DNA of 64,000 nucleotides, taken from assembly GCA_964570175.1 (NCBI GenBank), contig CAZMXG010000016.1, positions 9,746 to 73,745 on the forward strand, written 5' to 3'. This DNA is from an uncultured Heliomicrobium sp. (GTDB taxonomy: Bacteria; Acidobacteriota; Blastocatellia; RBC074). Shown here piece by piece: positions 16,971-64,000 of the stretch. The notes beneath the pieces are model-generated. The model was not told where the DNA came from. It did no database searches and was given only the letters and a program-made list of their open reading frames with translations. Position numbers and translations under genes: made by a program. Numbering within the stretch: position 1 is the first letter of the stretch; each line of letters begins with the position of its first letter.

Positions 16971-16989
16971 TCAGATCAAAGGAAACCGA

Positions 16990-18039: not shown

Positions 18040-18065
18040 AGTAAATGAGCCAGGAGCTTTTTTCT

Positions 18066-18150: not shown

Positions 18151-18157
18151 AATTGGT

Positions 18158-19525
<1,368 letters not shown>

Positions 19526-41733: not shown

Positions 41734-42410
41734 AAACATTAGAAGAAAAGGTAATTGACAGAATTAGAGGCCGATGTTTTAATGCAGCCCGCCAGTTCAT
41801 TAACGCCCTCGACTGACCCTCCCCGTAGTCAATCGGAAACACATCTTCACCAAGCATCCTAAAAGCTTGTGTTTCGATTCGAGCTGGTTATCTCCCAGAT
41901 ACAATCCAAAGTTATCGTTATTTTTAGAATTTGAACCGTGCTTGGCGTGTAGCCTGCAAACGTCGAATCGTGTTGCGTGGCATCAGGCCAAAGTGTGCGC
42001 TTCTGTCAGCTTATCTCAAGGAGAAAACATTATGGTGCCGTTTTGCTCGTCAGCTTAAAGCCTGTCTTTCCTGCATTTTTCCAAGCAGTTTACCGATAAA
42101 CTTCATTCGCAGATCAAATCGCATTCTTACAATAATTATCAAGGTTACGCTGCTCCTACACACACTTCAGCGCCCAATCAATGCGCAGACGCCAGCCCCT
42201 GGCGTTCAGATGATCGCCCCGCCTTCATCGCCCCCGTGGCAGCACAGGCTTTCATAACGCCTGATTGAAAAGATTTCTCTGCCCCCGATTTGCAGCTACG
42301 AACTCAAGTTTGAAAAACCCTTTTGTCATTTGTGTTGAAAGACGCTGCGGATTCCGAACGTAGAGCTTCGTGCATCCCTGTATCGTCAGTGTTTTTGTGT
42401 AGGAGAAAAT

Positions 42411-45407: not shown

Positions 45408-45426
45408 ACTGTTTCCGAAACAACTT

Positions 45427-45467
45427 GAGGCGTGCGGAATTTGGTTTTCCGCACGCCTCATTTTTCG
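45427..45467 (+). terminator. Rho-independent terminator
   Basis: The stem is gaggcgtgcgga / ccgcacgcctc with a 10-nt loop, followed by atttttcgtt, immediately after the stop at 45407. Confidence 0.75.
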
Positions 45468-45481
45468 TTCAACTACTGTGA

Positions 45482-46327
45482 TTATTTCTGGCCGATGATC
45501 AGACTGGTTTTGGCCGAAACTTCAAATGCAACATCCTGACGTTCGCGGTCAATGATTTTGCCAAGCTGCTGTTGCACCTGCTGGCGAGTTTCCCGATCCG
45601 GCAAAAACGCAAACCAATCATCCAGAAACAGGGTTTCAATCATTGGCGAAGCAAAAAACTCGCTGGCGTCCTGGAAATGAAATCGTTCATTGTGGGTCAC
45701 GCTGCGAACCTTGCTCAGCCCGGCATCCAGCGCCAGAGTTTCAGCATCGCCCGCTGTTAACCGTTCAGCAATCAACCGTTCGACTTCCGGTGAATGCGCG
45801 ACCAGATCCAGATCAAACAGAGCTTCCCAATACACTGAAAAGAATTCGCCGAAACTTCCCTGCGTCGCCAATTTGGCCACAATCGTCGCGCCTTTCTTGG
45901 CCACGCGAATCAATTCATCCAGCGCATCTTCAGTTTCCGCGACCGGCAGCATTGAAAGATCGCCAATCACCAAATCGAATTCGCCTCTGGGAAAATCCAG
46001 CTTCTTCAGCGAACCTTGGTGAAAGCTCGCTCGATTCGGCTTCTTCACATCGGCTTTGCCCCGCGCCAACATCAGTCGCTCTTCGCTGGGATCAACGCCG
46101 ACGACTACCACTTTGGAACCCGCGCGCAGCGAAAAATCCACCGCGTAACCGCCGGTGCCGCATAGCGCGTCCAGAACCTTTCCTTCTTTCGGAAGCTCGA
46201 TTTCTTCATCAACCAGGCGGTCAAAAACTTCCCGCCAGCCTGGAGCAATGTATAAGTCGTAAATGTATGCCAATTCTTTGGCGTCATGTTTTGCGATTTG
46301 TGAACGACCAACCATTCCCTCTTTCAT
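45482..46327 (-). CDS. Class I SAM-dependent methyltransferase
   Basis: Motif I is [16 protein letters not shown]. The start overlaps the S46 stop (ATGA), and the Shine-Dalgarno lies inside the S46 3' end. Confidence 0.6.
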
Positions 46328-48405: not shown

Positions 48406-48424
48406 AGGCTTAACTCCAATCAAA

Positions 48425-48784
48425 TCACTTCCACTTTCCCATAAATTCAATTTGACCTGATATTTCTTCCGCTGATCGCGCGGCAATGAGCTTGAGCAGC
48501 CGCCTCAGCTGCTCGCCAATCGAAAGCTCTTGCTGAGGCGCGAGTATCAGCCCGGCATGTGTTTTCCCTTGTGATAAGAATTCAGTATGCAATTGAAAAA
48601 AATCTCTTGAGTTAAAGCTGTAAACTGCGCGTCCGCAACTTGATGCAAACTCCAACTGTTCACCATCACTGCGTCCGTTCATTCCGGCTTCTGCTGAAGT
48701 CAGCACATCAACGTCACGCAGCCTTAACGCTCGGACAAGGTCGCTGTCCTGAGAATCTTCATCAAGGTAAAGGGTGATTTTCAT
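48425..48784 (-). CDS. DUF5615 (PIN-like) protein, putative toxin
   Basis: [34 protein letters not shown] matches the DUF5615 N-terminus. The gene overlaps the DUF433 stop by 4 nt. Confidence 0.55.
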
Positions 48785-49083
48785 TGAGCAGAAATGCTAT
48801 TGGAGTGTTCGCGCATCAGCCGCTCGTATTCGGTATCTTCCACCGCAATATCCGCTTCGATGGCAGCGCGGTTCAAATGATAGTAGGCAATCGCACAGTG
48901 AATTTGCGCCAGCGATAGATGCTCGATTTTGCGAGCAATTTCTTCCGGGCTGAAGCCGTTGTTGTACAAAACCGCAATGCGCTGAACCGTTACTCCCGTG
49001 CCCGAAATGATTGGTCGGCCACTGTGAATTCCCGGATGGCTTGTGATCATTGCGTCAATTCCAAGGGTTGCCGTTGCTGCCAT
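48781..49083 (-). CDS. DUF433 protein, putative antitoxin
   Basis: SHPGIHSGRPIISGTGVTVQRIAVLYNNGFSPEEIARKIEHLSLAQIHCAIAYY is typical of DUF433. The start is ATG 49083, or alternatively TTG 49104. Confidence 0.65.
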   Translation of the reverse strand: MAATATLGIDAMITSHPGIHSGRPIISGTGVTVQRIAVLYNNGFSPEEIARKIEHLSLAQIHCAIAYYHLNRAAIEADIAVEDTEYERLMREHSNSISAQ

Positions 49084-49100
49084 AACTATTTCTCCCGAGT

Positions 49101-50219
49101 TCAATTGCGTTCAACTTGTTCGGCCAATAACTGGCGAATAATGGGAACCAGCTTATCACAACCATCAAGCAATACGTCTGTTGTCGGAGTTACATAACGT
49201 CGTTCGTAATCTGCGATTGTCGAACGAACTTCGGCTTCGGTCATGGATTCGTGATTGATGGTCAAGGCGATAACTGGCTTTTGCGCCAGCAGTTCCAGAA
49301 TCTGAATCTCGCGTTCCAGCATGCTCATCGGGTACTCATCAAAACCGTCATAAACTTTTCGCGCCGGAGCGTGCTGCAAAATCACGCCATCCACCCGTCC
49401 GGCGGCGATCAACTCAAAGCCTCCGGGATACGCCGGATGCGCGATGCTGCCTTGCCCTTCCAGCAAAATGACCTGCGGATGTTCGTTGATCCAGGCTTCG
49501 TAAACTGCGTGTTCGATTTCACCCGTGACGAAATCGTTGACCAGAGAATCCAGCAGCAAGCCATACTTCACGCCCTGCAACCACGAAGTCTGCCCTGTGC
49601 CGATCAACTCGCTTTTGATGCCTGCGGCATTCAGCGCCTGGTTCAGTTTGACCGCAGTTGTGCGTTTGCCAATCGCCGAATCGGTGCCGAGCACTGCCAG
49701 CTTCAGCGCCTTCACTTCTTCGATTTTGCCGGTAAAAAAATGAAGCTGCGAACGCGGTGGCGTCCGGCGAACGTCGCGGATGTTGACTTGATGCTGTTTA
49801 GCCAGCGCGGCGAACTCTGCGTCTTCGGAAAGAAACTCATGCAAGCCGCTGTCCACGTTCAAACCAGCCGCAAGTGCCTGCTTGACGGCCAGCCGAGCCG
49901 TTTCCGGCAATTTGCCGCCGTCCGGAGCCAAACCAATGACAAAGAACTTCGGGCGCTCGACGGCTTTTTCAAACGCTTCGTTGAAGCTGGCAAAAATCGG
50001 AATGCCCGCCGGTTTGCCGTCCAACACTTCGCCTGCATCGCGCCCAGCTTTGGTGGAATCAATGACACCGACGACCTTGTAACGCGCGGTAAACCGCACC
50101 AAACCATTGGCTGTTTTGCCAACGGGAGTGGCGAAAGCTTCTTCGCAATAAACGATTGCTGAACCGTCCATATTTTCTTTGATGATTACCTGTTCTGGGA
50201 TTTGGAATTGATAGGGCAT
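49101..50219 (-). CDS. DUF1611 (DgcN-like) domain protein
   Basis: The N-terminal AIVYCEEAFATPVGKTANGLVRFTARYKVVGVIDS resembles the DUF1611_N Rossmann-like region. A GGTGGA Shine-Dalgarno precedes ATG 50219. Confidence 0.55.
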   Translation of the reverse strand: MPYQFQIPEQVIIKENMDGSAIVYCEEAFATPVGKTANGLVRFTARYKVVGVIDSTKAGRDAGEVLDGKPAGIPIFASFNEAFEKAVERPKFFVIGLAPDGGKLPETARLAVKQALAAGLNVDSGLHEFLSEDAEFAALAKQHQVNIRDVRRTPPRSQLHFFTGKIEEVKALKLAVLGTDSAIGKRTTAVKLNQALNAAGIKSELIGTGQTSWLQGVKYGLLLDSLVNDFVTGEIEHAVYEAWINEHPQVILLEGQGSIAHPAYPGGFELIAAGRVDGVILQHAPARKVYDGFDEYPMSMLEREIQILELLAQKPVIALTINHESMTEAEVRSTIADYERRYVTPTTDVLLDGCDKLVPIIRQLLAEQVERN

Positions 50220-50331
50220 CTTCCACCTTTGGCCGAAAGCTGGCAAGCGAGTGAACTCTTGCGGACGGCAAGCTACGGTTGTATGTTCGCCGCGCTTTCA
50301 ATCATTCCATCACCTGAAGGAGTTCATCCAA

Positions 50332-52110
50332 ATGTCCAACCGCTTCCATTTGCTGCGGATGACAGCGCTTGCTGTCATTGTCGCCACGCTCGCTTCGTTT
50401 TCATTTTCGCAAGCTCCGGCCAAAGCGCCAGCCCGTTACGAAGTTTCCATTCGCGCAGGAGTTCCCGTCAAAATGCGCGACGGCGTGACGCTGATTGCCG
50501 ATGTCTACAGCCCCAAAGCCGAAGGAAAATTCCCTGTGCTGTTGACGCGAACGCCGTACAACCGGCGCGATCCGATGACCGGAACGTTTCTGGCTTCGCA
50601 CGGATACGTCGTTGTGCTGCAGGACACGCGCGGGCGCTTTGATTCCGGCGGCGAGTTTTATCCCTTCAAATACGAAAGCCAGGACGGATACGACACCGTC
50701 GAATGGGCTGCGGCGCTGGAAAACTCCAACGGAATGATTGGCACCTTCGGTGGTTCGTACGTTGGCGCAACACAAATGCTGGCGGCAATTGCGAAGCCTC
50801 CGCATCTGAAAGCGATTTTCCCCTACGTCACGGCTTCGGAATATTACGACGGCTGGACCTATCAAAGCGGCGCGTGGATGCAGGCGTTTTCCAGCACCTG
50901 GACGACCGGACTGGCGCAGGACACATTGCGCCGCAAAGCCTCCGCGATGGCGAACATGACCGAATGGATGAAGCAATTGCCAGTCGAAGATTACAAGTTG
51001 ATCGGCCAGCCGACCGCAGCCGATTATGCGCCGTATTTTCGCGATTGGATCGAACACGAGCGCAACGACGAGTACTGGAAGAAATGGAAGATTTCGGACC
51101 ATTACGCGGAACTCGACATCAAGGCGCTGCACAGCGGCGGCTGGCACGACATCTTTCTAAAAGGTTCCATCGGCAATTACGTCGGGATGCAAAAAAGTGC
51201 TGCTACGCCTGAAGCGCGCGCCAATCAACGCTTATTGGTTGGCCCCTGGGCGCATGCGGCGACTTCGGCCGAAGGCAAAATCGGCGATGTGACGTTCGGC
51301 AAACAAGCCGTGCTGGACATGAACGGCACGATTGTGAAGTGGATGGATTACGCGCTGAAAGGCGTGAAAAACGAATTCGCCACCGATTCGCCGGTCAAGC
51401 TGTTTGTCATGGGCGAAAACGTCTGGCGCGACGAAAAAGAGTTTCCACTGGCGCGCACGCAATACACCAAATACTTTTTCCATTCGGCCAAAGGTGCAAA
51501 TACGGCCAGCGGCGATGGCTCGCTTTCGACCAAAGCACCCGCCAGCGAAAAAGCTGACACCTTCGAATACGACCCAGCGAATCCGGTCCCGACGGTCGGT
51601 GGCCGACTTTGTTGCGGCGGAACCATGCCCGGACCGTTTAGCCAGCAACCCAACGAATCGCGCCAAGACGTTTTGGTCTTTTCGACTCCCGCGCTGGAAC
51701 GCGACGTTGAAACAACGGGTTACATCACGGTGGAGTTGTATGCGACAAGCTCAGCCGTGGACACTGATTTCACAGCCTTGATCGCAGATGTGGATTCAAC
51801 TGGCTACGCGCGGTTTCTGACGGATGGCATCGTTCGGGCCCGATACCGCAATTCGACCGAACGCGCTGAGCTGATTGAACCGGGCAAGGTTTACAAATAC
51901 ACGATTGATCTGTGGGCGACCAGCAACGTGTTCAAAGCCGGTCATAAGATTCGCGTGTACCTGTCCAGCAGCAATTTTCCGCGCTTCAATCGCAACCTGA
52001 ACACCGGCGAAGCGACGATGCACGGCACGAAGATGGTCAAAGCTCGGCAAACGATTTATCACGACGCCGAACATCCGTCGGCCATCGTGCTTCCTGTCAT
52101 TCCGCGCTAG
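50332..52110 (+). CDS. CocE/NonD family hydrolase (S15 X-Pro dipeptidyl-peptidase-like)
   Basis: A signal peptide is followed by LTRTPYNRR. The nucleophile elbow is GGSYVGA and a C-terminal beta-sandwich follows. A GAAGGAG Shine-Dalgarno precedes ATG 50332. Confidence 0.8.
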   Translation: MSNRFHLLRMTALAVIVATLASFSFSQAPAKAPARYEVSIRAGVPVKMRDGVTLIADVYSPKAEGKFPVLLTRTPYNRRDPMTGTFLASHGYVVVLQDTRGRFDSGGEFYPFKYESQDGYDTVEWAAALENSNGMIGTFGGSYVGATQMLAAIAKPPHLKAIFPYVTASEYYDGWTYQSGAWMQAFSSTWTTGLAQDTLRRKASAMANMTEWMKQLPVEDYKLIGQPTAADYAPYFRDWIEHERNDEYWKKWKISDHYAELDIKALHSGGWHDIFLKGSIGNYVGMQKSAATPEARANQRLLVGPWAHAATSAEGKIGDVTFGKQAVLDMNGTIVKWMDYALKGVKNEFATDSPVKLFVMGENVWRDEKEFPLARTQYTKYFFHSAKGANTASGDGSLSTKAPASEKADTFEYDPANPVPTVGGRLCCGGTMPGPFSQQPNESRQDVLVFSTPALERDVETTGYITVELYATSSAVDTDFTALIADVDSTGYARFLTDGIVRARYRNSTERAELIEPGKVYKYTIDLWATSNVFKAGHKIRVYLSSSNFPRFNRNLNTGEATMHGTKMVKARQTIYHDAEHPSAIVLPVIPR

Positions 52111-52177
52111 GAAGGCTTGGAGTGCGGCTGCCTTAGCGTCGCACTCCAGGTTCGCAACATTCTTTTGGAGAGCGACT

Positions 52178-53347
52178 TTGAAAAACATTTTTCGCGGCTT
52201 TTTTGTTTTTGCAATTGTTCTTGTGTCATTTGCTGGCAAAGCCACCAACGCGCAACCGCCTTCTCAACCACGCGGCTATTCGATCCCCACGATTGATCTT
52301 TCTGCTGAAACGCAACGACAAGTCGTCGTTGACCGCGAATCAGGCCAATACCTGGGACATCCGACGACGGTTTTGCTGGAAGACAAAAAGACGATCATTA
52401 CCGTTTACCCCAAAGGCCACGGGCGCGGAGCCATTCAGATGAAGCGTTCTGCTGACGGTGGTTTGACCTGGTCTGAAAGACTGGCGACTCCCAAAAGTTG
52501 GGAAACTTCGTTGGAAACGCCGACCATTCATCGCGTTATTGACCGCAAAGGCAAAAAGCGATTGATTGTGTTTTCTGGCTTGTATCCGATTCGGATGGCG
52601 GTTTCAGAAGATGACGGCAAATCGTGGAGCGAATTGAATCCGATCGGTGATTTTGGGGGAATCGTGGCCATGGGCAGCGTCGAACGGTTGAAGAATGGCG
52701 ATTACGTGGCGCTGTTTCACGACGACGGGCGCTTCTTTCGCAAAGACGGCAAACGGTCGGAATTCATGACGTTGTACCAAACGATCTCGAAAGACGGCGG
52801 GCTGACCTGGGGCGAACCACAGGAACTGTTCAAATCCGACAAGATTCACTTGTGCGAACCCGGCGTGATCCGTTCGCCCAACGGCAAACAACTGGCCATG
52901 CTGTTGCGCGAAAATCGCCGGGCGCGCAATTCGTACGTGATGTTTTCCAATGACGAAGCCAGAACCTGGAGCCAACCTGTGGAATTACCCGGCGCACTAA
53001 CTGGCGACCGGCACACTGGCAAATATGGGCCGGATGGCCGGTTGTTTATTTCCTTCCGCGACACGACGCTGGAATCTACAACCAAAGGCGACTGGGTCGC
53101 CTGGGTTGGCCGGTACGAAGACATCGTCAATCTGCGCGAAGGCCAATACCGCGTTCGGCTGATGGACAACCACAAAAACAAATCCGGCTGGGATGCGGAT
53201 TGCGCATATCCGGGTGTAGAGATTTTGCCGGATGGGACGTTTGTGACCACCACATACGGCCATTGGATCGCTGGCGAAGCGCCCTACATTGTCAGCATTC
53301 GGTTAACCCTGAAAGAATTGGACGCCAAAGCCGGATTGAAGAAATGA
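52178..53347 (+). CDS. BNR/Asp-box repeat sialidase-like glycoside hydrolase (secreted)
   Basis: A signal peptide is present, with four Asp-boxes (SADGGLTWSE, SEDDGKSWSE, SKDGGLTWGE, SNDEARTWSQ). The start is TTG with a GGAGAG Shine-Dalgarno. Confidence 0.75.
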   Translation: MKNIFRGFFVFAIVLVSFAGKATNAQPPSQPRGYSIPTIDLSAETQRQVVVDRESGQYLGHPTTVLLEDKKTIITVYPKGHGRGAIQMKRSADGGLTWSERLATPKSWETSLETPTIHRVIDRKGKKRLIVFSGLYPIRMAVSEDDGKSWSELNPIGDFGGIVAMGSVERLKNGDYVALFHDDGRFFRKDGKRSEFMTLYQTISKDGGLTWGEPQELFKSDKIHLCEPGVIRSPNGKQLAMLLRENRRARNSYVMFSNDEARTWSQPVELPGALTGDRHTGKYGPDGRLFISFRDTTLESTTKGDWVAWVGRYEDIVNLREGQYRVRLMDNHKNKSGWDADCAYPGVEILPDGTFVTTTYGHWIAGEAPYIVSIRLTLKELDAKAGLKK

Positions 53348-53350
53348 GAT

Positions 53351-55249
53351 TCATTTTTCGCCCAGCCAAGCCTTTCTCAGCGACTTGAGCGAATCAGCGG
53401 CGTCTCTGTTTTCGGAAATCGTGTACCGATCAAACGGTTTTATAGCCGCCGTCAGTTCAAACGTCATCAGTCGTTCACGTCGAAATACGGTCAGAATGAC
53501 TTTCTGCCCAGCGCGTAAGCTGTTGAACAATTCGCTGGCGCTGGCTGCGCTCAGCCGTTTTCCGTCAATCGCCACCAATTCGTCGTTGGTATTCAGGCCG
53601 CTTTCGTAAGCGGGCATATCGGAAGGCAGATTGGAAATGATGACGCGGTCGCCTTGCGCACGAAACGCAATGCCGAGCGTGCCCGGTTTATCCGTTTTGC
53701 TGGCGGCATAGGGCGTGCCGGGCTGATAGCTTTTTTCCAGCTTCAAGCCGGCTTTGTTGAAATAGGCGTTGAAATCAATTTCTTCGTTGCCGCTGACAAA
53801 CCGATTCCAGAAATCCGTCATGCTGGTTCCAGCAACTTTTTCGATGGTGGCTTTCAGTTCGCCGTCTGTGAAGCCTGGTTTGGGCAGGCCGTGATTTTCC
53901 AGCAGCAATCGCATGACATCGTCAAATGATTTTGCGCCACCGGTCAGCGAACGAATTTCCAGATCGAACAACAATCCCAGAATTTCGCCTTTGGTGTAAT
54001 AGCTCATGGCCGTATTCAGCGAGTTTTCGTCCGGACGGTAATGTTTAATCCAGGCGTCAAAGCTGGCCGATTCCGCGCTCTGTTTGAATCGTCCGGGCAA
54101 ACGTTCGTAACCGCTGATCAATCCGGCCAGCCCCGCAAAGTACTCGTCTGAACCGATCAAGCCTGCCCGGCGCAATAGCAAATCGCCGTAATAACTGGTG
54201 ACGCCTTCAGAAACCCACAACCCGCGCGTGTAATTTTCGCGTTGGTAATCAAATGGTCCCAACGCCAGCGGGCGAATTCGTTTGACGTTCCAATGATGAA
54301 AATACTCGTGCGATTCCAGCCCCAGAAAACCCTTGTAGCCGCGATCCGACGCAAACGCCTGCGGAGTCGTCATGCTGACGTTTGAATTCAAATGCTCTGT
54401 TCCGCCGCCGATTCCCGGCTGAACGTGAACAATGAACAGGTAATGTTCATACGGCAACCCGCCGAACATTTGCGCACCAACTTCGACAATTTTGGCCAGA
54501 TCGGCTTTTAGCCGTTCGTCGTTAAATTCATATTGCCCCCAGATTGCAATGCGATGTTTTTTGCCGCGCACGTCGAATTCCAGCTGCTTGTGTTTGCCGA
54601 CTTCCGTCGGGGAATCTACCAGGCGGTCGTAATCTTCGGCGGTGAAATAGCCGTCGGAATCCGCGGCTAATGCCAGCGTCGAAGCCACTTGCCAACCCGC
54701 AGGCGCAACAATTTTCAACCGGTGCGGTTGGTCTTTCGCCGAAGCCACGTACATAAAGATCCCTGCGCCATTGAAATACGCGTGCGTTGCATCCAGATGG
54801 CTGGTTTGCGTGGCCAATTCGTTGGCGTACACGCGATAGAAAACCTGAATTGTTTTTGGTTTGTCGGCAGAGGCACCCGCTTCGACGCGCCAGGTCGCTT
54901 TATCCACTTTCTGCCAGCGAAGCTGCCCTGCCTGTTCCCTGGAATTGAAATCCTGAACATTACGCGCGTACTCCCGAACAAGATACGAACCAGGCGTCCA
55001 AACCGGCAGCGAAACATCCAGTTGAGCCGTTGTCACGTTGCTGATGGTCAGTTCCACTTCGTATAGATGCGTGTGCGGATTTGGAAACGACAGCACGTAG
55101 CTCAAACTTGGCGGTTTGACTATTGTTGTCGTAGCAGTTGCTGACTTTGGCTTGTTTGGTTGCCCGAAAGCATGCGCGCTGAATGCAAAAACAATTGCCA
55201 AACAAACGCACAACATGACGAAGCGAGAGAAGCGATTCATCGTTTTCAA
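53351..55249 (-). CDS. M61 family glycyl aminopeptidase with C-terminal PDZ domain
   Basis: A signal peptide is present. The zinc site is HEYFHHWN (HExxH). The length is about 630 aa and a C-terminal PDZ-like segment is present (DELVAIDGKRLS). Confidence 0.8.
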   Translation of the reverse strand: MKTMNRFSRFVMLCVCLAIVFAFSAHAFGQPNKPKSATATTTIVKPPSLSYVLSFPNPHTHLYEVELTISNVTTAQLDVSLPVWTPGSYLVREYARNVQDFNSREQAGQLRWQKVDKATWRVEAGASADKPKTIQVFYRVYANELATQTSHLDATHAYFNGAGIFMYVASAKDQPHRLKIVAPAGWQVASTLALAADSDGYFTAEDYDRLVDSPTEVGKHKQLEFDVRGKKHRIAIWGQYEFNDERLKADLAKIVEVGAQMFGGLPYEHYLFIVHVQPGIGGGTEHLNSNVSMTTPQAFASDRGYKGFLGLESHEYFHHWNVKRIRPLALGPFDYQRENYTRGLWVSEGVTSYYGDLLLRRAGLIGSDEYFAGLAGLISGYERLPGRFKQSAESASFDAWIKHYRPDENSLNTAMSYYTKGEILGLLFDLEIRSLTGGAKSFDDVMRLLLENHGLPKPGFTDGELKATIEKVAGTSMTDFWNRFVSGNEEIDFNAYFNKAGLKLEKSYQPGTPYAASKTDKPGTLGIAFRAQGDRVIISNLPSDMPAYESGLNTNDELVAIDGKRLSAASASELFNSLRAGQKVILTVFRRERLMTFELTAAIKPFDRYTISENRDAADSLKSLRKAWLGEK

Positions 55250-56084: not shown

Positions 56085-56846
56085 ATGCAAGCAGAAAGAT
56101 ATGTTCGTTCCGGAAACTATGTCGGCGAGCAGCTTAAATCCGACCTGTATTCGATCCGAGGCCTGGTGCTGGCCGTGTTTGCCGGGTTGCTGTTGATGTT
56201 TTTAGGCTTTCGCGCGCTGCCGGTTGAAAGCACGCCGTTGGTGGCCAAAGTCATGTGCCTGCTCAGTTTGTCCATTGCGGCAGGCGGAGTTGGAGCCTAC
56301 CTGGGCCGCAACATCCAAAGCCTGATTGCTGCCATCGGTTTATTCCTTCTGGCAATGGTTGGCATGTTCGTCGTTCGCGCGGCGGGTGGAGGCTTGCTGG
56401 CCGTTGGCTTGTTGATGGGGTGGAGCGGAATTTTCGGAATGATGATTGGGCCGTTTGTGTCTTATGCTGTTAGCGAAGAAGGTCCAGGGATTGTCATTCA
56501 GTCGCTGACGGGCACAACTGCCGTGATGATCATCACGGGCATTGTGGCCATGACTTCCGGCATCAACTTTTCAGCGTTGGGACCGATCCTGATGATTGGA
56601 TTGCTGGGTTTGATTGTGGTCGGCTTGGTCGGAATGTTCGTTAGATTTTCCAGGACAGTCAATCTCGTGTATTCGATCCTGGGCATCCTGATCTTCTCCG
56701 GCCTGTTTCTCTTCAAGTTTTTCAACTTGAGCAAGAGTGAAAACACCTGGGAAGCGGCGGTTGCGAACGCGATGAGCATCTACATTACCTTCGTCAATTT
56801 CTTCACCACACTGCTGCAATTGCTGCTGTCTATGAAGAGACGATAG
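56085..56846 (+). CDS. Seven-TM membrane protein, Bax-inhibitor-1/YccA-like (tentative)
   Basis: About 7 transmembrane helices and a basic C-terminal tail. An AAGGAGG Shine-Dalgarno precedes the start. Confidence 0.35.
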   Translation: MQAERYVRSGNYVGEQLKSDLYSIRGLVLAVFAGLLLMFLGFRALPVESTPLVAKVMCLLSLSIAAGGVGAYLGRNIQSLIAAIGLFLLAMVGMFVVRAAGGGLLAVGLLMGWSGIFGMMIGPFVSYAVSEEGPGIVIQSLTGTTAVMIITGIVAMTSGINFSALGPILMIGLLGLIVVGLVGMFVRFSRTVNLVYSILGILIFSGLFLFKFFNLSKSENTWEAAVANAMSIYITFVNFFTTLLQLLLSMKRR

Positions 56847-56901: not shown

Positions 56902-58245
56902 TTAAGCCGCCAAAGCCGCCTGCCACAATGCGTGTGCCACTTCCGGATGGGAAATGTCACTGTGCGCGCCCACAACGCCTCCGCCGTTTTTGATCACGTC
57001 GCTGCTTTCCAGGTTATAAATCTTTCCGGGTTTGAAATTGTAAGCCTCGCTGACCGGCTTCATTTTCAATCCTTCGGTGTTTACATCCATTCCCTGAATT
57101 CCGAACGCGCCAAGCGATCCGATTTTCGGAAGTTCCCCGGCAAAGGAAACCTGCCCGGCGATGCCTGCTCCGACCTTGTATAAGAACCCGCAAGCCCGGT
57201 CGAATTCGGATTGCGTTGTTACAATCGGCCCTCTCACGCGCGCATTTTTCATCAGCCGGGTAAAGTATCCGGGTTTGCCCGCATCGTGCGGAATGCTGGG
57301 ACAATACGCCCAGATTGAAAGCGCGCCTTGCACCAGCGTCATCGAATCAACCGGAGCCTGCGGAGTTGTATCACCTGACTTGCCCGCAGCAATCGCTGTG
57401 ACAACAGCGCATCCGAAGCTATGCCCCATCAAATGAATGTGAATTTCGCGCCCAGCGTCAGCCGCCGTTTTCTGAATCGCGCGCAGGAAAGCATTGCCGC
57501 CGCCTTCGCCGAACTGCCTGGCGCGGCTTTTCATTTCCCAGAAACTGAACGTTCGCAACGGCGCCAGCAACGTCCCGAAAAACGAAACCTTGCTGAAGCT
57601 GCCAGTTTGAAGATCTTCGCTCTCTTGTTTCAACGCATCCTGGAACATTTGTTCCGGATCGTAATTGGGGACTTCCGCATCAATCGCGGCATTTTCCGAA
57701 CCACTTTCCAGTTTCAGCGCCTTGGCCAATTCCAGATACGCGGCGCGAACATTTTCCGGCAAAGTGGAATGCTCATCCAATGCCGCCGTGACAATTGTTG
57801 TCAAGGGTTTGCGAATCCCGCGCACTTTACCTAACCGTTCAACGTAATCGTCAACGGTGGCTTTGACGATCTTTTTGACCTCACTTTGGGGGTCGAAGCC
57901 AAATGATCCGTTGTCTTCTTCGTCTCCCCAAGGCAAGCTCGGCCAATGCAATCCGACAAACATCGGCTTGAAACCAGGGCGTTTCTTTTTCATCGCCTCC
58001 AGGTCAGCCTGGCAGGTAAACAGATTCGGAATCCATTTGTCGTATTGTGCAATGGCAGCTGGAACGTCGCCCATCCAACCGTGGCTCATGATAATGACGT
58101 CTGTGTAACCACCGTTTTTCAACTCTTTTAGCAACTCAGAACTTGGCACCCCATTTTCGCCACCGAACCGTTCCTTGCCGTCTTTGTCAAAATTGACCAG
58201 ATAATATTTTTGGTCCGTGTTTCCGGGAATTGGTTTGATTAACAT
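56902..58245 (-). CDS. Alpha/beta-hydrolase fold serine esterase/lipase-like protein (third gene of the CHAT operon)
   Basis: The nucleophile elbow is HLMGHSFGC (GxSxG). An upstream segment DVIIMSHGWMG is present. An AGGAG Shine-Dalgarno lies 5 nt before ATG 58245, 11 nt after the upstream gene's stop. Confidence 0.6.
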   Translation of the reverse strand: MLIKPIPGNTDQKYYLVNFDKDGKERFGGENGVPSSELLKELKNGGYTDVIIMSHGWMGDVPAAIAQYDKWIPNLFTCQADLEAMKKKRPGFKPMFVGLHWPSLPWGDEEDNGSFGFDPQSEVKKIVKATVDDYVERLGKVRGIRKPLTTIVTAALDEHSTLPENVRAAYLELAKALKLESGSENAAIDAEVPNYDPEQMFQDALKQESEDLQTGSFSKVSFFGTLLAPLRTFSFWEMKSRARQFGEGGGNAFLRAIQKTAADAGREIHIHLMGHSFGCAVVTAIAAGKSGDTTPQAPVDSMTLVQGALSIWAYCPSIPHDAGKPGYFTRLMKNARVRGPIVTTQSEFDRACGFLYKVGAGIAGQVSFAGELPKIGSLGAFGIQGMDVNTEGLKMKPVSEAYNFKPGKIYNLESSDVIKNGGGVVGAHSDISHPEVAHALWQAALAA

Positions 58246-58256
58246 GATGTCTCCTT

Positions 58257-61200
58257 TTATCCGTTAGTCCGCCAGATGATTTCTTCGCTGGTGCTGTAAA
58301 AAACTCTTTCCAGGTCAAGTGGCCATTGCTGGCGTTTTTCGCGCAACCGATTGAGCGTCTCTTCGTCGCCCATTTCGGCCAACGCTTGCAGCGCCTTTGT
58401 TCGCAGATATGAAGCCTTGGATTTATCACTGACCTTTTTGGTGATGATGTTTTCTTCATTGAGCGCGACTTTTTCAAACTCGCCTTTCCATTTTTTCCAC
58501 TCCGGCGGTAATAAGTAGCTGACAGCCAGAATTGCCCGCCCTTTTTGCAGGATATTGGCCTTGGGCGAACTTAAAACTTCTTCGACAAAAGCGCGCGCGG
58601 TTTCGTTTGAGTGGCGAAGCTGTCCAATCAGATAAATCAATTGTTCGCGGCGCTCGCTGCGCTTATTTGGATCGCTCAGTGTGCCGCTTTCGATGATGGG
58701 CAAAATCGCTTCGTTCATCACGCGTTCCGGATCCAGCGTCGTCAAGGCGTCAGTGATCGCCCAACGAATAACTTCCGACGTTTTGTCACTTTTGAACGCT
58801 GCAATCAGTTTTCCGTGCGCTTCGTCGTATCGCACATCGCCAAGCGCAAATGCCGCCATCGAAGCCATCGCATCACACATCGTGGAAGTCTCTTCGTCAG
58901 TGGCATGGTTCTCTTCTTTCATCCGATCTTCCAGCCATTGAATCTCTTCTGGGCCGCCGCGAACCCACTTCTGGATCAGTTCCTCCAGCGGTTTGCACAA
59001 CTTGCGTAATTCGGCAGTGTATTCTTCTTTCGGATCGGCATTTTCCTTGGTCGGCAATAAACGGCGCAGCGCACGGCCAGCCGCCTGACGAATGCCTCCG
59101 TACTCAAAATCTTGCCTGCCGTTGGAATTCATGCGAGTTTTGCTCATCGCAATCCGGGTCAGATAAGTGAGCACTTCCAGACGTTTCAGCCGCCCCAAAG
59201 CTTCCACCGCGCGCAGCCGCTGAAATGAGCGCGGCTCATTGGTGGCGTCGCAACGCCAAACCAATGCATCCAGCACCAGCGATTCAACATAACTGGCATC
59301 AGCTGGGGACTTGGCATCTTTGCTATTCAATTGCGCTTCCAGCAAACAACGCGCAGCCAGAAAGACCTGTTCGCCATCTTTCAGCGAAGTCGAATAAGCA
59401 ATTTTTTCCAGCAGATCTTTGGGATTACTGACCAGTCCGGCCATTAACGTCAGTGTGTCGTCCCAGCGACGTAGCTGGTTGACACGGCCCAGCCCGGAAG
59501 TAATTTCTTCCCAACGTTTTGGATTGTTTTGAGCTTTCAGATATTGCGCACAGCAATAAGCCTGGAACGATGGGTAAAGAAACCGGATCGAATCGCCGCC
59601 GGCGCGCGCCAGAATTTCCACATCAGTCAGACAGTCCAGCATTTCTTCCAACTGGTATTCGCGGTTCTCGCGAATGCGCGAAATCATATCCAGCGCGTCT
59701 TTGATCGGCATACTCGTATCGCCACCTACCTGCATTCGGTACGCCAGCAGGTAAAGCGTGTCCAGGGCGCGAGCCTGCTGGCCTCGCCGCTGCGTCACGC
59801 TGCGGACTCTTTCTTCGATCAAGTCGCGCAATACGCTGACGCGGCTATCAGGGAAATTGCCTTCCAGGGATTGCTTGATCAACTGCACGAACATCCACGG
59901 CATTCCGGCCAGATCGAAAAGCTGCGTTTCTTCCAGCCGGGCGCGCAAGGTTCGCAGGTTTTGTTCTTCGCGCGATTCGACAGACTCGCCTCGTTCTCTT
60001 CTCGACTTTTCAACTTTATTGGCGCTGTCGAACAGGAAACGAATGATGCGGCGACGGCTGAGCGGTTGAACGTCCAGCACGTGTGTGGCATTGCTGTCAG
60101 CCCAATCCCACAACCCACGCGTTTGAGTCACAAATAGCGGGTATTGGGGATAATCGTTGACCAGATTGTTAATTTCTTTGGTTAAGGCTTTTCGCTGAGC
60201 TTCGGAAAGGTCGTCTCCATTATCGAGATAGAATCGGAATTTATGATTGCCATCATCAAGCAAACCGAGCATTTCTTTTTCGGTCAGCAAGCCGGACCAG
60301 AATTCGCCCATGCATTGCGTGAGCAATGTCAGATACGAGGGGATCACGCTGCCCGCAGGAATATTTTTTTGCAGGTCAACATAGACCGGCAAAATCTGAT
60401 CGCGTGAATTTCCATCCAGCGATTGCTCGGCCGTACACATCACCATCCAGCGCATTGCGGTTGACCGCGCGGTTCCGCGCTGACCGGTAATGGCAATCAG
60501 CAGAGGTTGTTTGCCTTCCCCTTGTCTCAGCAATGCCATCAACTGTGTGTGCAAATCCACCCGGCCCTGTTGCGGCAAAATCTGATTTTCCCAATTGGAT
60601 TTGATTTGATCACCGGCCATCACTACGGCTTCCAGAGGCAAATAGCCGTATTTGAAGACCGGCCGGAACCGCGGTTCTTCTAAAATCGTCCGCAACATTT
60701 CCCGCTCGCGGTTGGCGGTGAATAACCGTCCGCGCGGCGTTCGCATAAACAGAACGGGAATCGTCCAACTGTCCAGCAAAGCTTCCTGATCAAAGGTGAA
60801 CAGGCGCGAACGATTCAACGCCAGATCAATCACACCTTCACGCAGCAGATTGTCGTAAAAGTTTTCGACCAGTTCGCGCGCCATAGCAATCGGCACCTGA
60901 TCCTGCATCGCCACAACCGCCGGAAAGCCGGCGGCGACCAGCTTTGGCCCGAGTCCCGTAAACGGACTTGGATTGCGTTCGTCGTATTTTGTCGTGTCAC
61001 AAGCCGACAGGAAAACCAATCGCGGCAGCGTTCCGCGGTGAACCAGATAACTGACGATCTGGTCGTCTGGAACTTTGACAAATTTGCCTTGTTCATCTTC
61101 CAGCACCAACAGCGTGGCCCGGCGCGCGCGTTGGCGAGGCGGTGGCGCAGTTTCGCCATTGTCGGTGGCTGGCGGCGGCACGCGCTCGAAAACACCGTGT

Positions 61201-61994
61201 CCCAGAAAATGGAGCACGTGATGATTGAACTGTTTTTGAATCTGGCTGATGGTTGTGTTGCCCGGGATCATACGAAACTTCGGCGGCTTCAGCTTGGCCT
61301 TCAATTCTTCGCTCAGTTCAGTGCGGCCGGACATAATGGATATTTCAATATCACCTATGTCTTTGACGGCTTCATAAAAGTTGTTGATCTCTTGCTCGAC
61401 TTTGATTTCGGCCAGCTTCGGCGCTTCAGGATCGTCGTTCAAATCGGCCAAATTGCTGGGGTTTGAAACTGCCAGCAAGACTTTCAACGGACGTTCGTCC
61501 GCAGCCAAGGGGGGTTCAGCGATTGGCAGGCGCGTAAACCGTGAAAATGGCGTTTGATCGAAATTTGCCAGCGACCGCCATTTGTCATCAAACAGCACAT
61601 AGAGCCGTTCCCACCGAATGCGGTGAAGCTCACTGCATTCTTCCGAAATCCATAACTGGACGCGAAGCTCTTTCTGCTGACAGGTTTGTGTTCTTCCCCA
61701 GGCTTTTTGGAAAACATTATGCAGGCTTTGTTCCGCTGGGCTGCCGTCTGCATTTGCTGGTTTCAGGAATAACAATTGATATAGATATTCGCCGTAACTT
61801 TGCGTGCCCAAATCGCGGCGGCGAAGCAGTTCCTGTTCTTCTTCGTCGCCCAGCCTCATCATCTGTTTGTGCCAACTGCCATCATCCAATTCAGCTTCGA
61901 CACGATACAACCCTTCGGCATCCAGGCCGAAGATGCGAATGCGAATCCAGCATAAATCGGTTCCCGATTGTCCACCGCCAGTTTGCCCGTTCAC
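58257..61994 (-). CDS. Giant CHAT-domain (caspase-like) protein with NACHT-like NTPase region and C-terminal HEAT-type repeats
   Basis: CHAT motifs are present: the His in NHHVLHFLGHG, the Cys in RLVFLSACDT, and the following AVVAMQDQVPIAMARELVENFYDNLL. The NTPase-like region has a degenerate P-loop ITGQRGTARST and a NACHT-type Walker B FYLDNGDD. The C-terminal third is HEAT/PBS-lyase-like helical repeats. The start is GTG 61994. It overlaps the upstream stop (GTGA) and an AAGGAGG Shine-Dalgarno lies 7 nt upstream. Confidence 0.75.
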   Translation of the reverse strand: MNGQTGGGQSGTDLCWIRIRIFGLDAEGLYRVEAELDDGSWHKQMMRLGDEEEQELLRRRDLGTQSYGEYLYQLLFLKPANADGSPAEQSLHNVFQKAWGRTQTCQQKELRVQLWISEECSELHRIRWERLYVLFDDKWRSLANFDQTPFSRFTRLPIAEPPLAADERPLKVLLAVSNPSNLADLNDDPEAPKLAEIKVEQEINNFYEAVKDIGDIEISIMSGRTELSEELKAKLKPPKFRMIPGNTTISQIQKQFNHHVLHFLGHGVFERVPPPATDNGETAPPPRQRARRATLLVLEDEQGKFVKVPDDQIVSYLVHRGTLPRLVFLSACDTTKYDERNPSPFTGLGPKLVAAGFPAVVAMQDQVPIAMARELVENFYDNLLREGVIDLALNRSRLFTFDQEALLDSWTIPVLFMRTPRGRLFTANREREMLRTILEEPRFRPVFKYGYLPLEAVVMAGDQIKSNWENQILPQQGRVDLHTQLMALLRQGEGKQPLLIAITGQRGTARSTAMRWMVMCTAEQSLDGNSRDQILPVYVDLQKNIPAGSVIPSYLTLLTQCMGEFWSGLLTEKEMLGLLDDGNHKFRFYLDNGDDLSEAQRKALTKEINNLVNDYPQYPLFVTQTRGLWDWADSNATHVLDVQPLSRRRIIRFLFDSANKVEKSRRERGESVESREEQNLRTLRARLEETQLFDLAGMPWMFVQLIKQSLEGNFPDSRVSVLRDLIEERVRSVTQRRGQQARALDTLYLLAYRMQVGGDTSMPIKDALDMISRIRENREYQLEEMLDCLTDVEILARAGGDSIRFLYPSFQAYCCAQYLKAQNNPKRWEEITSGLGRVNQLRRWDDTLTLMAGLVSNPKDLLEKIAYSTSLKDGEQVFLAARCLLEAQLNSKDAKSPADASYVESLVLDALVWRCDATNEPRSFQRLRAVEALGRLKRLEVLTYLTRIAMSKTRMNSNGRQDFEYGGIRQAAGRALRRLLPTKENADPKEEYTAELRKLCKPLEELIQKWVRGGPEEIQWLEDRMKEENHATDEETSTMCDAMASMAAFALGDVRYDEAHGKLIAAFKSDKTSEVIRWAITDALTTLDPERVMNEAILPIIESGTLSDPNKRSERREQLIYLIGQLRHSNETARAFVEEVLSSPKANILQKGRAILAVSYLLPPEWKKWKGEFEKVALNEENIITKKVSDKSKASYLRTKALQALAEMGDEETLNRLREKRQQWPLDLERVFYSTSEEIIWRTNG

Positions 61995-63487
61995 TGCAAA
62001 TCCTCCTTGCGCAAACGCACCGCCGGATCGCCAAACAGAATGAAGGTTTCGGCATCGTTGCGCGTCAGCCACAAACCAGCCATTTCCGGGTCAGAGGCTT
62101 TGCCTTGATCCATTTTATCCGTCAGCAAGCGTGACATTTCGTTGGCTCGGCTGACAAAACCTGTCAGCGCATGGCCAAGCGGACGCCCACTCAAGATCGT
62201 ATAAAAAGCGTCCTCAAAGGGCTGCAATTGTTTTCCGACTGCGGCAGTAACAATCGAAGTTTGCCAGGCGCGTTCGACGTGGCCGAATACGCCCAAAGCG
62301 CCACCGTTTTTATGGCTTAACATGGCTTGCGGCAATTTCGAGAAAACGGGTTTGTCAGGCACTGCGGGAACTTCATTCTGAAACTTGAAGCGGTTTTCGT
62401 TCGGCGTTCCTGCGCCATAACAGGCAAACAAAAAACAAACCATGCCGAACAGATTTACATCGGCAGTCAGATCGGCTCCGGCCAGATAATGTTCCGGCTT
62501 CAACGGCCCGGCGCTCAAGCCGAAATAATCCTGGGTAAGCAGGGCTCCTTGCGCCGTTTTTTGAAGCGGGTTGTCGTTTTTCCAGGCGACTCCGTGGCTG
62601 GCCGTAAACAACAGCGAAGGTGCAGGAGCATTCTTCTTTCGCTTGAAGACATTCATCAACGCGTCTTTTTTGGAATCGTCTGGAAGAATCAGCTTTTTGT
62701 TGAACTTGATCTTGTCTTTGCGGAAGAGCCGTTCGTAAACCTTTGCCTGGGTTTCATCCGACAGCGGTTTGACCAGCAATTCGGAACTCAGTTTGGTTGC
62801 GCCATCGTTTTTCTGCCTCGGTCCCCATAAAACAATGTCCTTGCTGGTCGGGGCAGGCTTGCCTTTGGCGGTTTCGTAATCAATCACGCTTTTGACGTAG
62901 GCTTTATAATCGTCAACTTTGTCGAAATAGAGTCGCCCGACTGCATATCCGGCAGAAAGCAGATGGCCGAAGCGGAAAGAGATTTTTTCCGGGCTGCCGA
63001 CCAGCAAAATGTAATACGGCATGCAGGTGGGTTCGACGGTGGCGAAATCAGCTTTGTTTTTGATCAGCCATTCCCGCGCGCCCTGGCCGCTGTAATCTTC
63101 AATCCATTTGACGATTTTGGCGGCGTCCTCGGCTTGAAACTCGTCGCGGATCATTTTCAACCGATGGTCGAACAGCGGGCGCAACGCTTTTTTGACTTCC
63201 GGGTCTTCGTCTTTGTGAAAGACAATCGCCCACCCTGTGTCCCAGAAATCCAGAGGGTCAACGCCCTCCGGCAGACCCAAAACTTCCTGGCCGGATTTTG
63301 CCTGGCGGCGTTTGACGGCTTTTTCTTTGGCGGCCTCGTCTTCGGACGGCTTGTAATCGCGCATCGCTTTGGCAATCTCAGTAACCGAAATCGGTTTTAC
63401 AAGGTAATCACCTGTGTCACCGCTGATGCCATTGATTATCACCTGATCGTCAGGTTGTGTCGGTAAACTATTCTTCTTGGCGGGCAT
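61991..63487 (-). CDS. Putative caspase-fold (clan CD-like) protein, first gene of the CHAT operon
   Basis: In the C-terminal half a hydrophobic strand plus SHG (SLLFTASHG) is followed about 55 aa later by a hydrophobic strand plus AC (NLFGMVCFLFACYGAG). This is the His/Cys arrangement of caspase-like folds. I recognise no family for the N-terminal 250 aa. Confidence 0.4.
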   Translation of the reverse strand: MPAKKNSLPTQPDDQVIINGISGDTGDYLVKPISVTEIAKAMRDYKPSEDEAAKEKAVKRRQAKSGQEVLGLPEGVDPLDFWDTGWAIVFHKDEDPEVKKALRPLFDHRLKMIRDEFQAEDAAKIVKWIEDYSGQGAREWLIKNKADFATVEPTCMPYYILLVGSPEKISFRFGHLLSAGYAVGRLYFDKVDDYKAYVKSVIDYETAKGKPAPTSKDIVLWGPRQKNDGATKLSSELLVKPLSDETQAKVYERLFRKDKIKFNKKLILPDDSKKDALMNVFKRKKNAPAPSLLFTASHGVAWKNDNPLQKTAQGALLTQDYFGLSAGPLKPEHYLAGADLTADVNLFGMVCFLFACYGAGTPNENRFKFQNEVPAVPDKPVFSKLPQAMLSHKNGGALGVFGHVERAWQTSIVTAAVGKQLQPFEDAFYTILSGRPLGHALTGFVSRANEMSRLLTDKMDQGKASDPEMAGLWLTRNDAETFILFGDPAVRLRKEDLQ

Positions 63488-63618: not shown

Positions 63619-63659
63619 AATTGAAGTAAGACAATTTGGAAAATTGTCTTACTTCAATT
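63619..63659. promoter_or_regulatory. 19-bp perfect inverted repeat (aattgaagtaagacaattt gga aaattgtcttacttcaatt) in the divergent promoter region
   Basis: It lies between the operon start at 63487 and the plus-strand gene at 63677. It ends 6 nt before the AAGGAG Shine-Dalgarno. Confidence 0.4.
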
Positions 63660-63676: not shown

Positions 63677-64000
63677 ATGAATTGTCCGAAATGTGGAACT
63701 CAACTGCCGAATGACGCTCGATTTTGCAGCGTCTGCGGATCGAATATCGGGGCCGCGCAACCCGGCGCTTCTCCCAGCCCAGGCGGTTATGCGCAAGCCG
63801 CCCAAGCAGCAGGAATCCGAATTGATTCCGATGGACGCGGCAGCGGGCGCGGGTACAGCTTTGACATCCAACATGCCGGAGCCTTTGCATTAGCAGTCAT
63901 ACAACTGCAAGCCGGGCAATCCATCCAGGCCGAAGCCGGCGCCATGGTTTCCATGTCCGGCAACATCGAATTGCAATCGCAAATGAAAGGCGGGTTGATG
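63677..64000 (+). CDS. Zinc-ribbon / AIM24 (TIGR00266) family fusion protein (3' partial, runs off window)
   Basis: An AAGGAG Shine-Dalgarno precedes the start. The N-terminal is CPKCGTQLPNDARFCSVCG, a zinc ribbon. It is followed by GYSFDIQHAGAFALAVIQLQAGQSIQAEAGAMVSMSGNIELQSQMKGG, which is an AIM24-like N-terminus. Confidence 0.65.
   Translation, partial: MNCPKCGTQLPNDARFCSVCGSNIGAAQPGASPSPGGYAQAAQAAGIRIDSDGRGSGRGYSFDIQHAGAFALAVIQLQAGQSIQAEAGAMVSMSGNIELQSQMKGGLM

Follow-up and report, generated by a model that had tools for sequence, protein, structure and literature searches.

In a 64,000-nucleotide stretch of DNA from an uncultured member of the Acidobacteriota (contig CAZMXG010000016.1 of assembly GCA_964570175.1; the whole stretch is called the window below), three minus-strand genes, here g1, g2, and g3, are translationally coupled and encode two different caspase-fold cysteine proteases and an α/β hydrolase. 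g1 (61991-63487), assigned from the open reading frame (ORF) list, Pfam, and a predicted fold, encodes a C25-like cysteine peptidase of 498 amino acids. g2 (58257-61994), assigned from its ORF, Pfam, and a family profile, encodes a CHAT-NACHT-like-HEAT protein of 1245 amino acids read from a GTG. g3 (56902-58245), assigned from its ORF, predicted fold, and catalytic triad, encodes a lipase/phospholipase-like α/β hydrolase of 447 amino acids. The same combination recurs, with different sensor modules, in many bacterial phyla, and we propose that it probably acts as a protease-gated cell-death or immunity module.

The coupling can be read directly in the sequence. The stop of g1 and the start of g2 overlap in a GTGA (61994-61991, minus strand), and a Shine-Dalgarno sequence, AAGGAGG, lies inside the 3′ end of g1 (62002-62008), 7 nucleotides (nt) upstream of the GTG. 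The TAA stop of g2 (58259-58257) is followed by an 11-nt spacer and then the ATG of g3 (58245-58243), with a second Shine-Dalgarno sequence, AGGAG (58251-58255), in the spacer, 5 nt upstream of the ATG. A first-pass annotation, made from the letters alone, had described these packed genes and coupling signals, and all of its coordinates held; g2, which it put at about 1246 amino acids, measures 1245 from the GTG. Because a database protein identical to g2 has the same length, 1245 amino acids, the GTG start has been called independently. The motifs quoted in the first-pass annotation (HFLGHG, LVFLSAC, GQRGTARST, FYLDNGDD, SHG/FACYGAG, and GHSFG) are all present and all conserved within their families. 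No signal peptide was found on g1, g2, or g3, and an Rfam search of the locus and the intergenic region returned nothing beyond hairpin noise far below threshold.

The g1 protein matches Pfam Peptidase_C25 at 35 bits, against a cut-off of 23, and its structure is predicted with confidence (predicted local distance difference test score [pLDDT], 88; predicted template modeling score [pTM], 0.91), which bears out the second caspase-fold domain suspected earlier. His298-Gly299 and Cys356 are invariant in 44 homologs; by the alignment of the dyad, the codons of His298 and Cys356 are at 62594-62596 and 62420-62422 on the minus strand. No hydrophobic signal is seen at the N terminus of the protein, the secretion-related domains known from gingipains are missing, and the chain stops directly after the catalytic fold. 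Given that a signal peptide and the secretion domains are absent, g1 is a cysteine peptidase of the gingipain fold (C25-like, clan CD) that resides in the cytoplasm. That it could be a secreted, gingipain-like nutrient protease is ruled out by the missing signal peptide together with the STAND context. Some homologs of g1 are longer: one from Chloroflexota (locus L003, 4656-6722) and one from cyanobacteria (L038, 1413-3395) carry a C-terminal extension of ~90 to 200 amino acids, closed by a conserved helical segment, EGEIDxALWxIHxDxVxQAQAxRxE...LLxALKVL, for which Pfam has no match. This extension may be an adaptor (EAD-like) domain; other cyanobacterial homologs of g1 are comparably long (558 to 596 amino acids).

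g2 is tripartite, with a CHAT protease domain at the N terminus (residues 91-420; 60735-61724), an NTPase module in the middle (residues 421-800; 59595-60734), and a HEAT array at the C terminus (residues 801-1245; 58260-59594), all on the minus strand. The CHAT signature recognized in the first pass corresponds to a strong Pfam match (PF12770; E=9.7e-23, 81.5 bits against a cut-off of 24, residues 91-399). Its catalytic His266, in HFLGHG (codon 61197-61199), and Cys332, in LVFLSAC (codon 60999-61001), are invariant across the ~75 full-length homologs of g2, which are found in Acidobacteriota and Chloroflexota. NCBIfam, searched with the locus proteins, gave only a generic HetF/CHAT similarity over the same domain (30 bits against a cut-off of 1200), and the g2 family profile reaches SAVED-CHAT at E=3e-4. 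The C-terminal repeats, presumed to be the sensor or binding surface, give a HEAT_2 match above the Pfam gathering score, and the family profile finds designed HEAT proteins (alphaRep/PBS-HEAT) at E=4e-26, in line with the HEAT-like repeats first proposed.

The middle module is recognizable mainly through its relatives. g2 itself has no NACHT, AAA, NB-ARC, or nSTAND match in Pfam at E<0.1. Among 34 representative full-length homologs, Pfam finds NACHT in 17 (best E=2.7e-7), AAA_16 in 13, and nSTAND5 in 6, and the NACHT domain of NLRP5 is among the matches of the family profile (E=0.005). On the strength of these homolog and profile matches, to which the alignment of the P loops can be added, we take the module to be a genuine NACHT-like STAND NTPase; the earlier assignment thus stands by way of the family and not by any Pfam NTPase match of g2 itself. 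The Walker A motif, GQRGTARST (60459-60485), departs from the canonical GxxxxGK[ST] in that Arg510 replaces the Lys, as had been noticed at the outset. The same G-x-R-G-T-A-R-S-T is found in every Blastocatellia-type member over a range of 40 to 100% identity, while relatives in Chloroflexota and Bryobacterales keep the Lys in a canonical GxxGxGKS. The Arg is thus a fixed, derived state of the Blastocatellia-type clade and not a sign of decay. A decaying NTPase module can be ruled out, given that both the Arg and the rest of the P loop are strictly conserved over that range. The Walker B motif (FYLDNGDD, 60210-60233, located by alignment) follows the pattern hhhhDxx[DE][DE], which is kept in most members of the family and degenerates only in the most distant. 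Since the Walker A Lys is an Arg, the NTPase of this clade probably binds nucleotide but hydrolyzes it poorly.

For g3, Pfam gave Abhydrolase matches below threshold only. The predicted structure (pLDDT 83) has an α/β-hydrolase fold, and the nearest known structures are lipases and phospholipases. The nucleophile elbow, G274-H-S276-F-G278, follows the strand at residues 269-275; Asp349 follows the strand at 341-345, and His428 follows that at 409-413. From the alignment and the model, the codons of the triad are at 57418-57420 (Ser276), 57199-57201 (Asp349), and 56962-56964 (His428) on the minus strand. The triad and an oxyanion motif, H55-G56 (HGW), are invariant in 43 homologs, so that the hydrolase first proposed from the GHSFG elbow is supported by both fold and active site. 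Between strands 4 and 5, the protein carries a helical insertion of ~170 amino acids (residues 101-268), which contains low-confidence loops in the model.

How widespread is this combination? The g1 and g3 families each comprise more than 2,000 clusters, far more than the full-length g2 family, which indicates that g1 and g3 also travel with other partners. When a g3 profile was searched against a collection with one genome per species (185,579 species genomes), it returned 450 stretches, in phyla that include Acidobacteriota, Cyanobacteria, Planctomycetota, Verrucomicrobiota, Gemmatimonadota, Nitrospira, Chloroflexota, and alpha-, beta-, and gamma-Proteobacteria. We annotated the best 80 g3 loci with hidden Markov models (HMMs) built from g1, g3, the subdomains of g2, and AIM24; the counts that follow refer to 53 loci in which g3 has 2 kb or more of flanking sequence on both sides. 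g1 is present in 46 of the 53. It directly adjoins g3 (within 300 bp, in either order) in 30 and is separated from it by a full-length g2 in 13 of the 46. g1 occurs together with a CHAT protein in 38 of 53 loci, and Pfam adds a CHAT domain in 3 of 8 loci that had appeared to hold g1 only, so that CHAT stands beside g3 and g1 in at least 41 of 53. Either g1 or a CHAT protein, or both, are found in 50 loci, and 1 of the other 3 (L057) is a g3-CHAT fusion, as judged by eye. The trio is co-conserved in Acidobacteriota, and in at least eight other phyla its three parts occur with another STAND or repeat module.

What changes between lineages is the protein to which CHAT is joined. In the Acidobacteriota form, CHAT-NACHT-HEAT (g2) is inserted between g1 and g3. 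A CHAT-nSTAND1-WD40 protein of ~1,650 to 1,750 amino acids takes its place in cyanobacteria, planctomycetes, and a contig of a metagenome-assembled genome (MAG) labeled Alcaligenaceae (L080); in Lysobacter the partner is CHAT-SIR2_2, followed by nSTAND1-WD40; and in Nitrospira and Gemmatimonas it is CHAT-TPR-S. By their domain content, these architectures fit a scheme of protease, STAND module, and repeat sensor. A complete triad is also found on a conjugative Sinorhizobium plasmid, beside WYL, PD-(D/E)XK, and UvrD genes.

Some loci depart further from the common plan. In L052, L054, L057, and L085, from Variovorax, MAGs labeled beta- or alphaproteobacteria, and Gemmatimonadaceae, g3 is fused to CHAT through a low-complexity linker to give proteins of ~1070 to 1180 amino acids; the CHAT of L054 is matched by Pfam (E=3e-12), and those of L052, L057, and L085 were judged by eye from their His/Cys motifs. 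In a Pirellulales MAG (L089, 8711-11350), Endonuclease_NS is fused to the N terminus of g3. Distant g3-like proteins of ~440 amino acids directly follow an S8 peptidase on plasmids of Burkholderia (L090, 3436-6606), Rhizobium (L094, 2619-5615), and Rhodococcus (L095, 2685-5783); only their C-terminal catalytic half aligns to g3, at 26 to 32% identity. Here one type of hydrolase is paired with a protease of an unrelated class. The constant requirement, on the evidence of these S8 swaps, would therefore be a protease next to this hydrolase. Finally, a Blastocatellia genome (L006/L007, 6463-19837) has two standalone CHAT genes, a 184-amino-acid ORF, g1, and g3, followed by proteins of 1347 and 643 amino acids without a significant Pfam domain and then a MoxR-like AAA_5 ATPase. 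From its gene content, this looks like a VMAP-vWA-MoxR ternary system that uses the same g1-g3 pair.

Upstream of g1 and divergent from it lies a gene for a Zn-ribbon/AIM24 fusion (ZnR-AIM24; 63677-64000, plus strand), 296 amino acids at full length and cut by the end of the window, in which Pfam finds both Zn_Ribbon_1 and AIM24, as had been predicted. Among the 13 trio loci with 2 kb or more of flank on both sides of g3, ZnR-AIM24 adjoins g1 in 9, in several flank contexts. Its identity between loci is 74%, against 41 to 51% for the trio proteins of those loci; it is, by this comparison, a slowly evolving companion of a fast-evolving trio. It is possible that it is a fourth, clade-specific partner, or it may merely be a preferred neighbor. 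As a universal component it can be ruled out: Bryobacterales lack it, as do two Acidobacteriota trio loci, even with 4 kb of upstream sequence available, and it was found in none of the non-Acidobacteriota loci. These absences were scored with a single-sequence HMM, which could miss distant AIM24 genes. In the literature, we found no paper that meaningfully links AIM24 with PspA or CHAT.

The interval between g1 and ZnR-AIM24 contains a perfect 41-nt palindrome with 19-nt arms and a 3-nt loop (63619-63659, no strand assigned), 17 nt upstream of the AIM24 ATG; the 19-bp palindrome reported for this shared promoter region is therefore confirmed as 19+3+19 nt. It is kept in two relatives only, L012 (58-98) and L013 (4483-4523), and both of these show the same compensatory A:T to G:C change in the two arms (AAGAC/GTCTT to AGGAC/GTCCT). 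It is absent from the closer relative L011 and from all distant loci. The palindrome is a candidate operator or 5′ untranslated region hairpin; because it is restricted to two close relatives, we treat it as a local regulatory feature outside the definition of the system. A scan for promoters and terminators gave counts at chance level, and one −35-like hexamer that overlaps the palindrome was not counted as evidence.

In the window and in close relatives, the flanks are syntenic housekeeping genes, with a GFO-family oxidoreductase beyond AIM24 and, beyond g3, Bax1-I, the Leu/Phe-tRNA protein transferase gene aat, and an M61 peptidase. The locus is not part of a defense island in this genome. 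The block made up of AIM24 and g1-g2-g3 is inverted relative to its housekeeping neighbors in L001 and stands in unrelated flanks in L008 and L024. L001, from Blastocatellales, also has an IS200/IS605-type transposase gene (Pfam Y1_Tnp; 12235-12720) between g2 and g3 and, immediately downstream of g3, a gene for a 1337-amino-acid TIR-CHAT-AAA_5/nSTAND3 protein (14442-18455), making a small conflict-type cluster.

Other features of the surroundings deserve mention. The Bax1-I/YccA-type membrane protein gene (56085-56846, plus strand; Pfam Bax1-I, E=5e-26) is convergent to g3; Bax1-I is in the same position in L021 by Pfam, and in L023 and L018 there is an ORF that matches it in size, position, and strand. 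Its place beside g3 probably reflects synteny by descent, and a member of the "Bax inhibitor" family beside a putative death module is a curious coincidence. The 13-kb region downstream of the locus (42339-55249) is unusually rich in peptidase genes, namely those for an M10-like metalloprotease with BACON/He_PIG domains, an S46 dipeptidyl-peptidase, an X-Pro dipeptidyl-peptidase of family S15, and a PDZ-bearing M61 glycyl aminopeptidase; it also encodes a BNR-repeat protein and a DUF1611 P-loop protein. A near-identical Acidobacteriota locus is found in L010 to L012, L015, L017, and L022, MAG contigs titled "uncultured Heliomicrobium sp." or "Heliobacteriaceae." These titles look like a taxonomic mislabel, in conflict with the Blastocatellia labels of the closest relatives.

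What might such a trio do? The logic of protease-controlled effectors is already in print. Kaur, Burroughs, Iyer, and Aravind (eLife 2020; PMC7159879) predicted that a caspase and an α/β hydrolase encoded as a pair act together. Evans et al. (bioRxiv 2025.11.14.688446; PMC12642450) showed that LcCaspase of Lysobacter capsici cuts an LcHydrolase zymogen at two R|G sites and that the fragments of LcHydrolase, but not the intact protein, kill Escherichia coli; the hydrolase has a lipase-like fold, and its substrate is unknown. Steens et al. (Science 2024; 10.1101/2023.06.23.546230) found that oligomerized SAVED-CHAT cleaves and activates a second caspase-like protease. On the basis of this published logic and of the STAND-receptor architecture of g2, we imagine a cascade in which g2 would be both sensor and initiator. 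Its C-terminal HEAT array would bind a trigger, and the central NACHT-like module would drive or stabilize oligomerization, gathering the N-terminal CHAT domains and switching them on. CHAT would then cleave its partners from the same operon, most likely activating g1 first, and g1, alone or with CHAT, would cut the putative g3 zymogen within or beside the 170-amino-acid helical insertion. Once cut, g3 would gain an esterase- or lipase-type activity leading to cell death or arrest. Alternatively, each of the two proteases might make one of two required cuts in g3. We infer the position of g1 between CHAT and g3 because g1 is the immediate neighbor of g3 in most lineages, because CHAT is fused or adjacent to g3 where g1 is missing, and because an S8 protease takes that place in the distant branch.

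We favor, with a probability of roughly 60%, a STAND-type module in which proteases gate cell death or immunity. In its favor are the domains and intact catalytic residues of the three enzymes, the coupling of the genes, their recurrence with STAND and repeat partners, the fusions and S8 swaps, the fast divergence of the trio relative to AIM24, and its presence on a conjugative plasmid and, in L001, beside a TIR-CHAT-nSTAND3 gene. The distances between pairs of loci for g1, g3, and CHAT also go together (Mantel r of 0.70 to 0.79, p=0.001, computed without a species-tree control), a result that fits co-inheritance. The direction of the cascade, the zymogen and toxin roles of g3, the kind of trigger, and any action against phage are inferred. 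The first-pass annotation had already seen a protease, an NTPase sensor, repeats, and a hydrolase effector in this arrangement, and the published work agrees with that logic (PMC7159879; PMC12642450). One can also envision a bolder version, a two-tier caspase-fold cascade in which an initiator CHAT on an apoptosome-like STAND platform activates g1 as executioner and g1 a lipase-type death enzyme, the Blastocatellia STAND being made independent of hydrolysis by the Lys-to-Arg change and the HEAT array guarding ZnR-AIM24 instead of recognizing phage proteins directly. As a whole, we consider this version unlikely.

Several observations weigh against a death or immunity module. The Arg in place of the Walker A Lys is clade-wide, and the NTPase cycle may differ from that of canonical STANDs. 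Within g2, conservation is highest in residues 801-1020 of the HEAT array and lowest in the nucleotide-binding domain, a pattern opposite to that expected of a rapidly diversifying pathogen sensor; to judge from the alignment, conservation of the HEAT array fits a conserved ligand better than a sensor engaged in an arms race. Inheritance of the locus is vertical in the genome of the window and in close relatives, within a conserved housekeeping neighborhood and outside any defense island. The Endonuclease_NS-g3 fusion could make g3 a regulatory module rather than a toxin. PADLOC-DB v2.0.0 models gave 0 matches to g1, g2, and g3 at E<=0.1, and no relative of g3 was found in phage records. Finally, by size and protease fold, LcHydrolase and LcCaspase may belong to a different family from g3 and g1, in a comparison of descriptions only.

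Some of the same facts would suit a role in regulated proteolysis for development, stress response, or social behavior rather than in immunity against phage. Here a resident CHAT/STAND switch would process host proteins, perhaps ZnR-AIM24, and the hydrolase would remodel lipids or peptides. The CHAT protease HetF acts in cyanobacterial differentiation. The weak NCBIfam similarity of g2 to HetF points in that direction, but it is to the generic CHAT domain only and falls far below the cut-off. Other points in its favor are the stable syntenic chromosomal site in Blastocatellia, away from any defense island; the way in which the slow-evolving ZnR-AIM24 stays adjacent through rearrangements; the conserved HEAT domain; and the enrichment of the system among filamentous or complex bacteria (for example, Scytonema, Microcoleus, Gemmata, and Parabeggiatoa). 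Evans et al. also raise stress responses for modules of this kind (PMC12642450). A developmental switch sits less well with the patchy distribution of the system, which was found in only ~450 stretches and includes plasmids, with the quick divergence of the trio relative to ZnR-AIM24, and with partner proteins that carry the classical conflict effectors SIR2, TIR, and Endonuclease_NS. We regard such a role as not very likely.

It is also conceivable, though quite improbable, that g3 is not the terminal toxin and that g1-g3 is a regulator, adaptor, or decoy upstream of or alongside the CHAT-STAND proteins, with killing done by broad CHAT/C25 proteolysis or, in other lineages, by SIR2 or nuclease effectors. 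The Endonuclease_NS-g3 fusion and the CHAT-SIR2 partners do show separate effector domains in related systems, a caspase-like protease without an effector can confer phage resistance by itself, and the Lysobacter hydrolase that has been characterized is still without a known substrate (PMC12642450). Yet the invariance of the triad and oxyanion motif in g3 homologs argues for an enzymatic rather than a scaffold role, no other effector is encoded in the trio of the window, and the published hydrolase fragments are themselves toxic (PMC12642450). The peptidase-rich surroundings (M10-like, S46, S15, and M61 within 20 kb) could suggest something simpler, namely that the proteases and an esterase form a plain catabolic operon with no signaling or death function. 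A scavenging protease would be expected to be exported, whereas g1, g2, and g3 all lack a signal peptide; a STAND-type NTPase with repeats is a signaling architecture; and the trio moves as a block, independently of its peptidase neighbors. A catabolic operon is thus very hard to credit.

A protease-gated death or immunity module of the STAND type, the reading that we prefer, would be of broader interest. Death effectors gated by proteases are coming to be seen as a main logic of bacterial immunity and as the evolutionary backdrop of caspase/apoptosome signaling. The trio would be a widespread version of that logic, with ~450 stretches in nine or more phyla, and its lipase-like hydrolase and two distinct caspase-fold proteases are combined with interchangeable STAND sensors. 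It could provide a tractable test of whether bacteria commonly use protease cascades from initiator to executioner to effector, and it may reveal what the α/β-hydrolase effector degrades. The natural Walker A Arg variant and its Lys-bearing sister lineages offer a ready comparison for asking whether STAND activation needs hydrolysis.

That leaves the relationship of the trio to systems already described. The first-pass annotation did not recognize the arrangement as a known system, and in this it overstated the novelty: the pairing of a caspase with an α/β hydrolase and its coupling to STAND or β-propeller proteins are in the literature, and one pair has been characterized biochemically. Like the module of Kaur et al. 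and Evans et al., the trio has a gene for a caspase-fold cysteine protease beside one for an α/β hydrolase of unknown substrate, is joined to STAND or β-propeller sensors (NACHT-HEAT, nSTAND1-WD40, and TPR-S among the g1/g3 loci), and is found in soil and multicellular bacteria. It differs in that LcHydrolase has ~300 amino acids, whereas g3 has 447 with its 170-amino-acid insertion; in that LcCaspase is small, with Cys129 as its catalytic residue, whereas g1 has a gingipain (C25) fold of ~500 amino acids with Cys356; and in the second protease, CHAT, of most trio loci. The gingipains RgpB and Kgp and PorU (MEROPS C25) share just 12 to 14% sequence identity with g1. Unlike them, g1 lacks a signal peptide, the Ig-like and type IX secretion system C-terminal domains, and a long N-terminal prodomain, and its context is a STAND system, not secretion.

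The type III-B CRISPR/CBASS hybrid in which SAVED-CHAT activates PCaspase resembles the trio in having two caspase-fold proteases in one system and an abortive-infection outcome. Its sensor is a SAVED domain that binds cyclic oligoadenylate, whereas g2 has a NACHT-like STAND with HEAT repeats; its second protease is PCaspase, not a C25-like enzyme, and the trio presumably ends in a hydrolase effector. The surroundings of the trio contain no CRISPR or CBASS genes. Avs/AVAST proteins, bacterial NLR-like (NACHT) proteins, and Apaf-1-like STAND receptors have the same tripartite architecture as g2. However, no PADLOC Avs or NLR model matches g2, its Walker A Arg is clade-wide, the trio has two extra, obligatory enzymes, and the sensor domain of g2 is conserved rather than variable. 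The VMAP-vWA-MoxR and iSTAND ternary systems (Kaur et al. 2020) use the same caspase/α/β-hydrolase accessory pair, and iSTAND systems offer an earlier case of STAND modules with impaired catalysis. In contrast to these, the window has no MoxR or vWA genes, the neighbors being Bax1-I, aat, M61, and ZnR-AIM24, and g2 keeps Walker B and an otherwise intact P loop, so that it is not clearly "inactive." A literature search found no paper that combines a C25-like protease (Peptidase_C25) with CHAT. By analogy, then, the trio would work like the published protease-effector modules and STAND immune receptors, while membership in the LcCaspase/LcHydrolase family is not demonstrable. The general principle is known; the recurrent triad of a C25-like protease, a large α/β hydrolase, and a CHAT-STAND sensor is a new, uncharacterized version of it, and the Acidobacteriota form is set apart within that version by NACHT-HEAT, the fixed Lys-to-Arg change, and the AIM24 neighbor.

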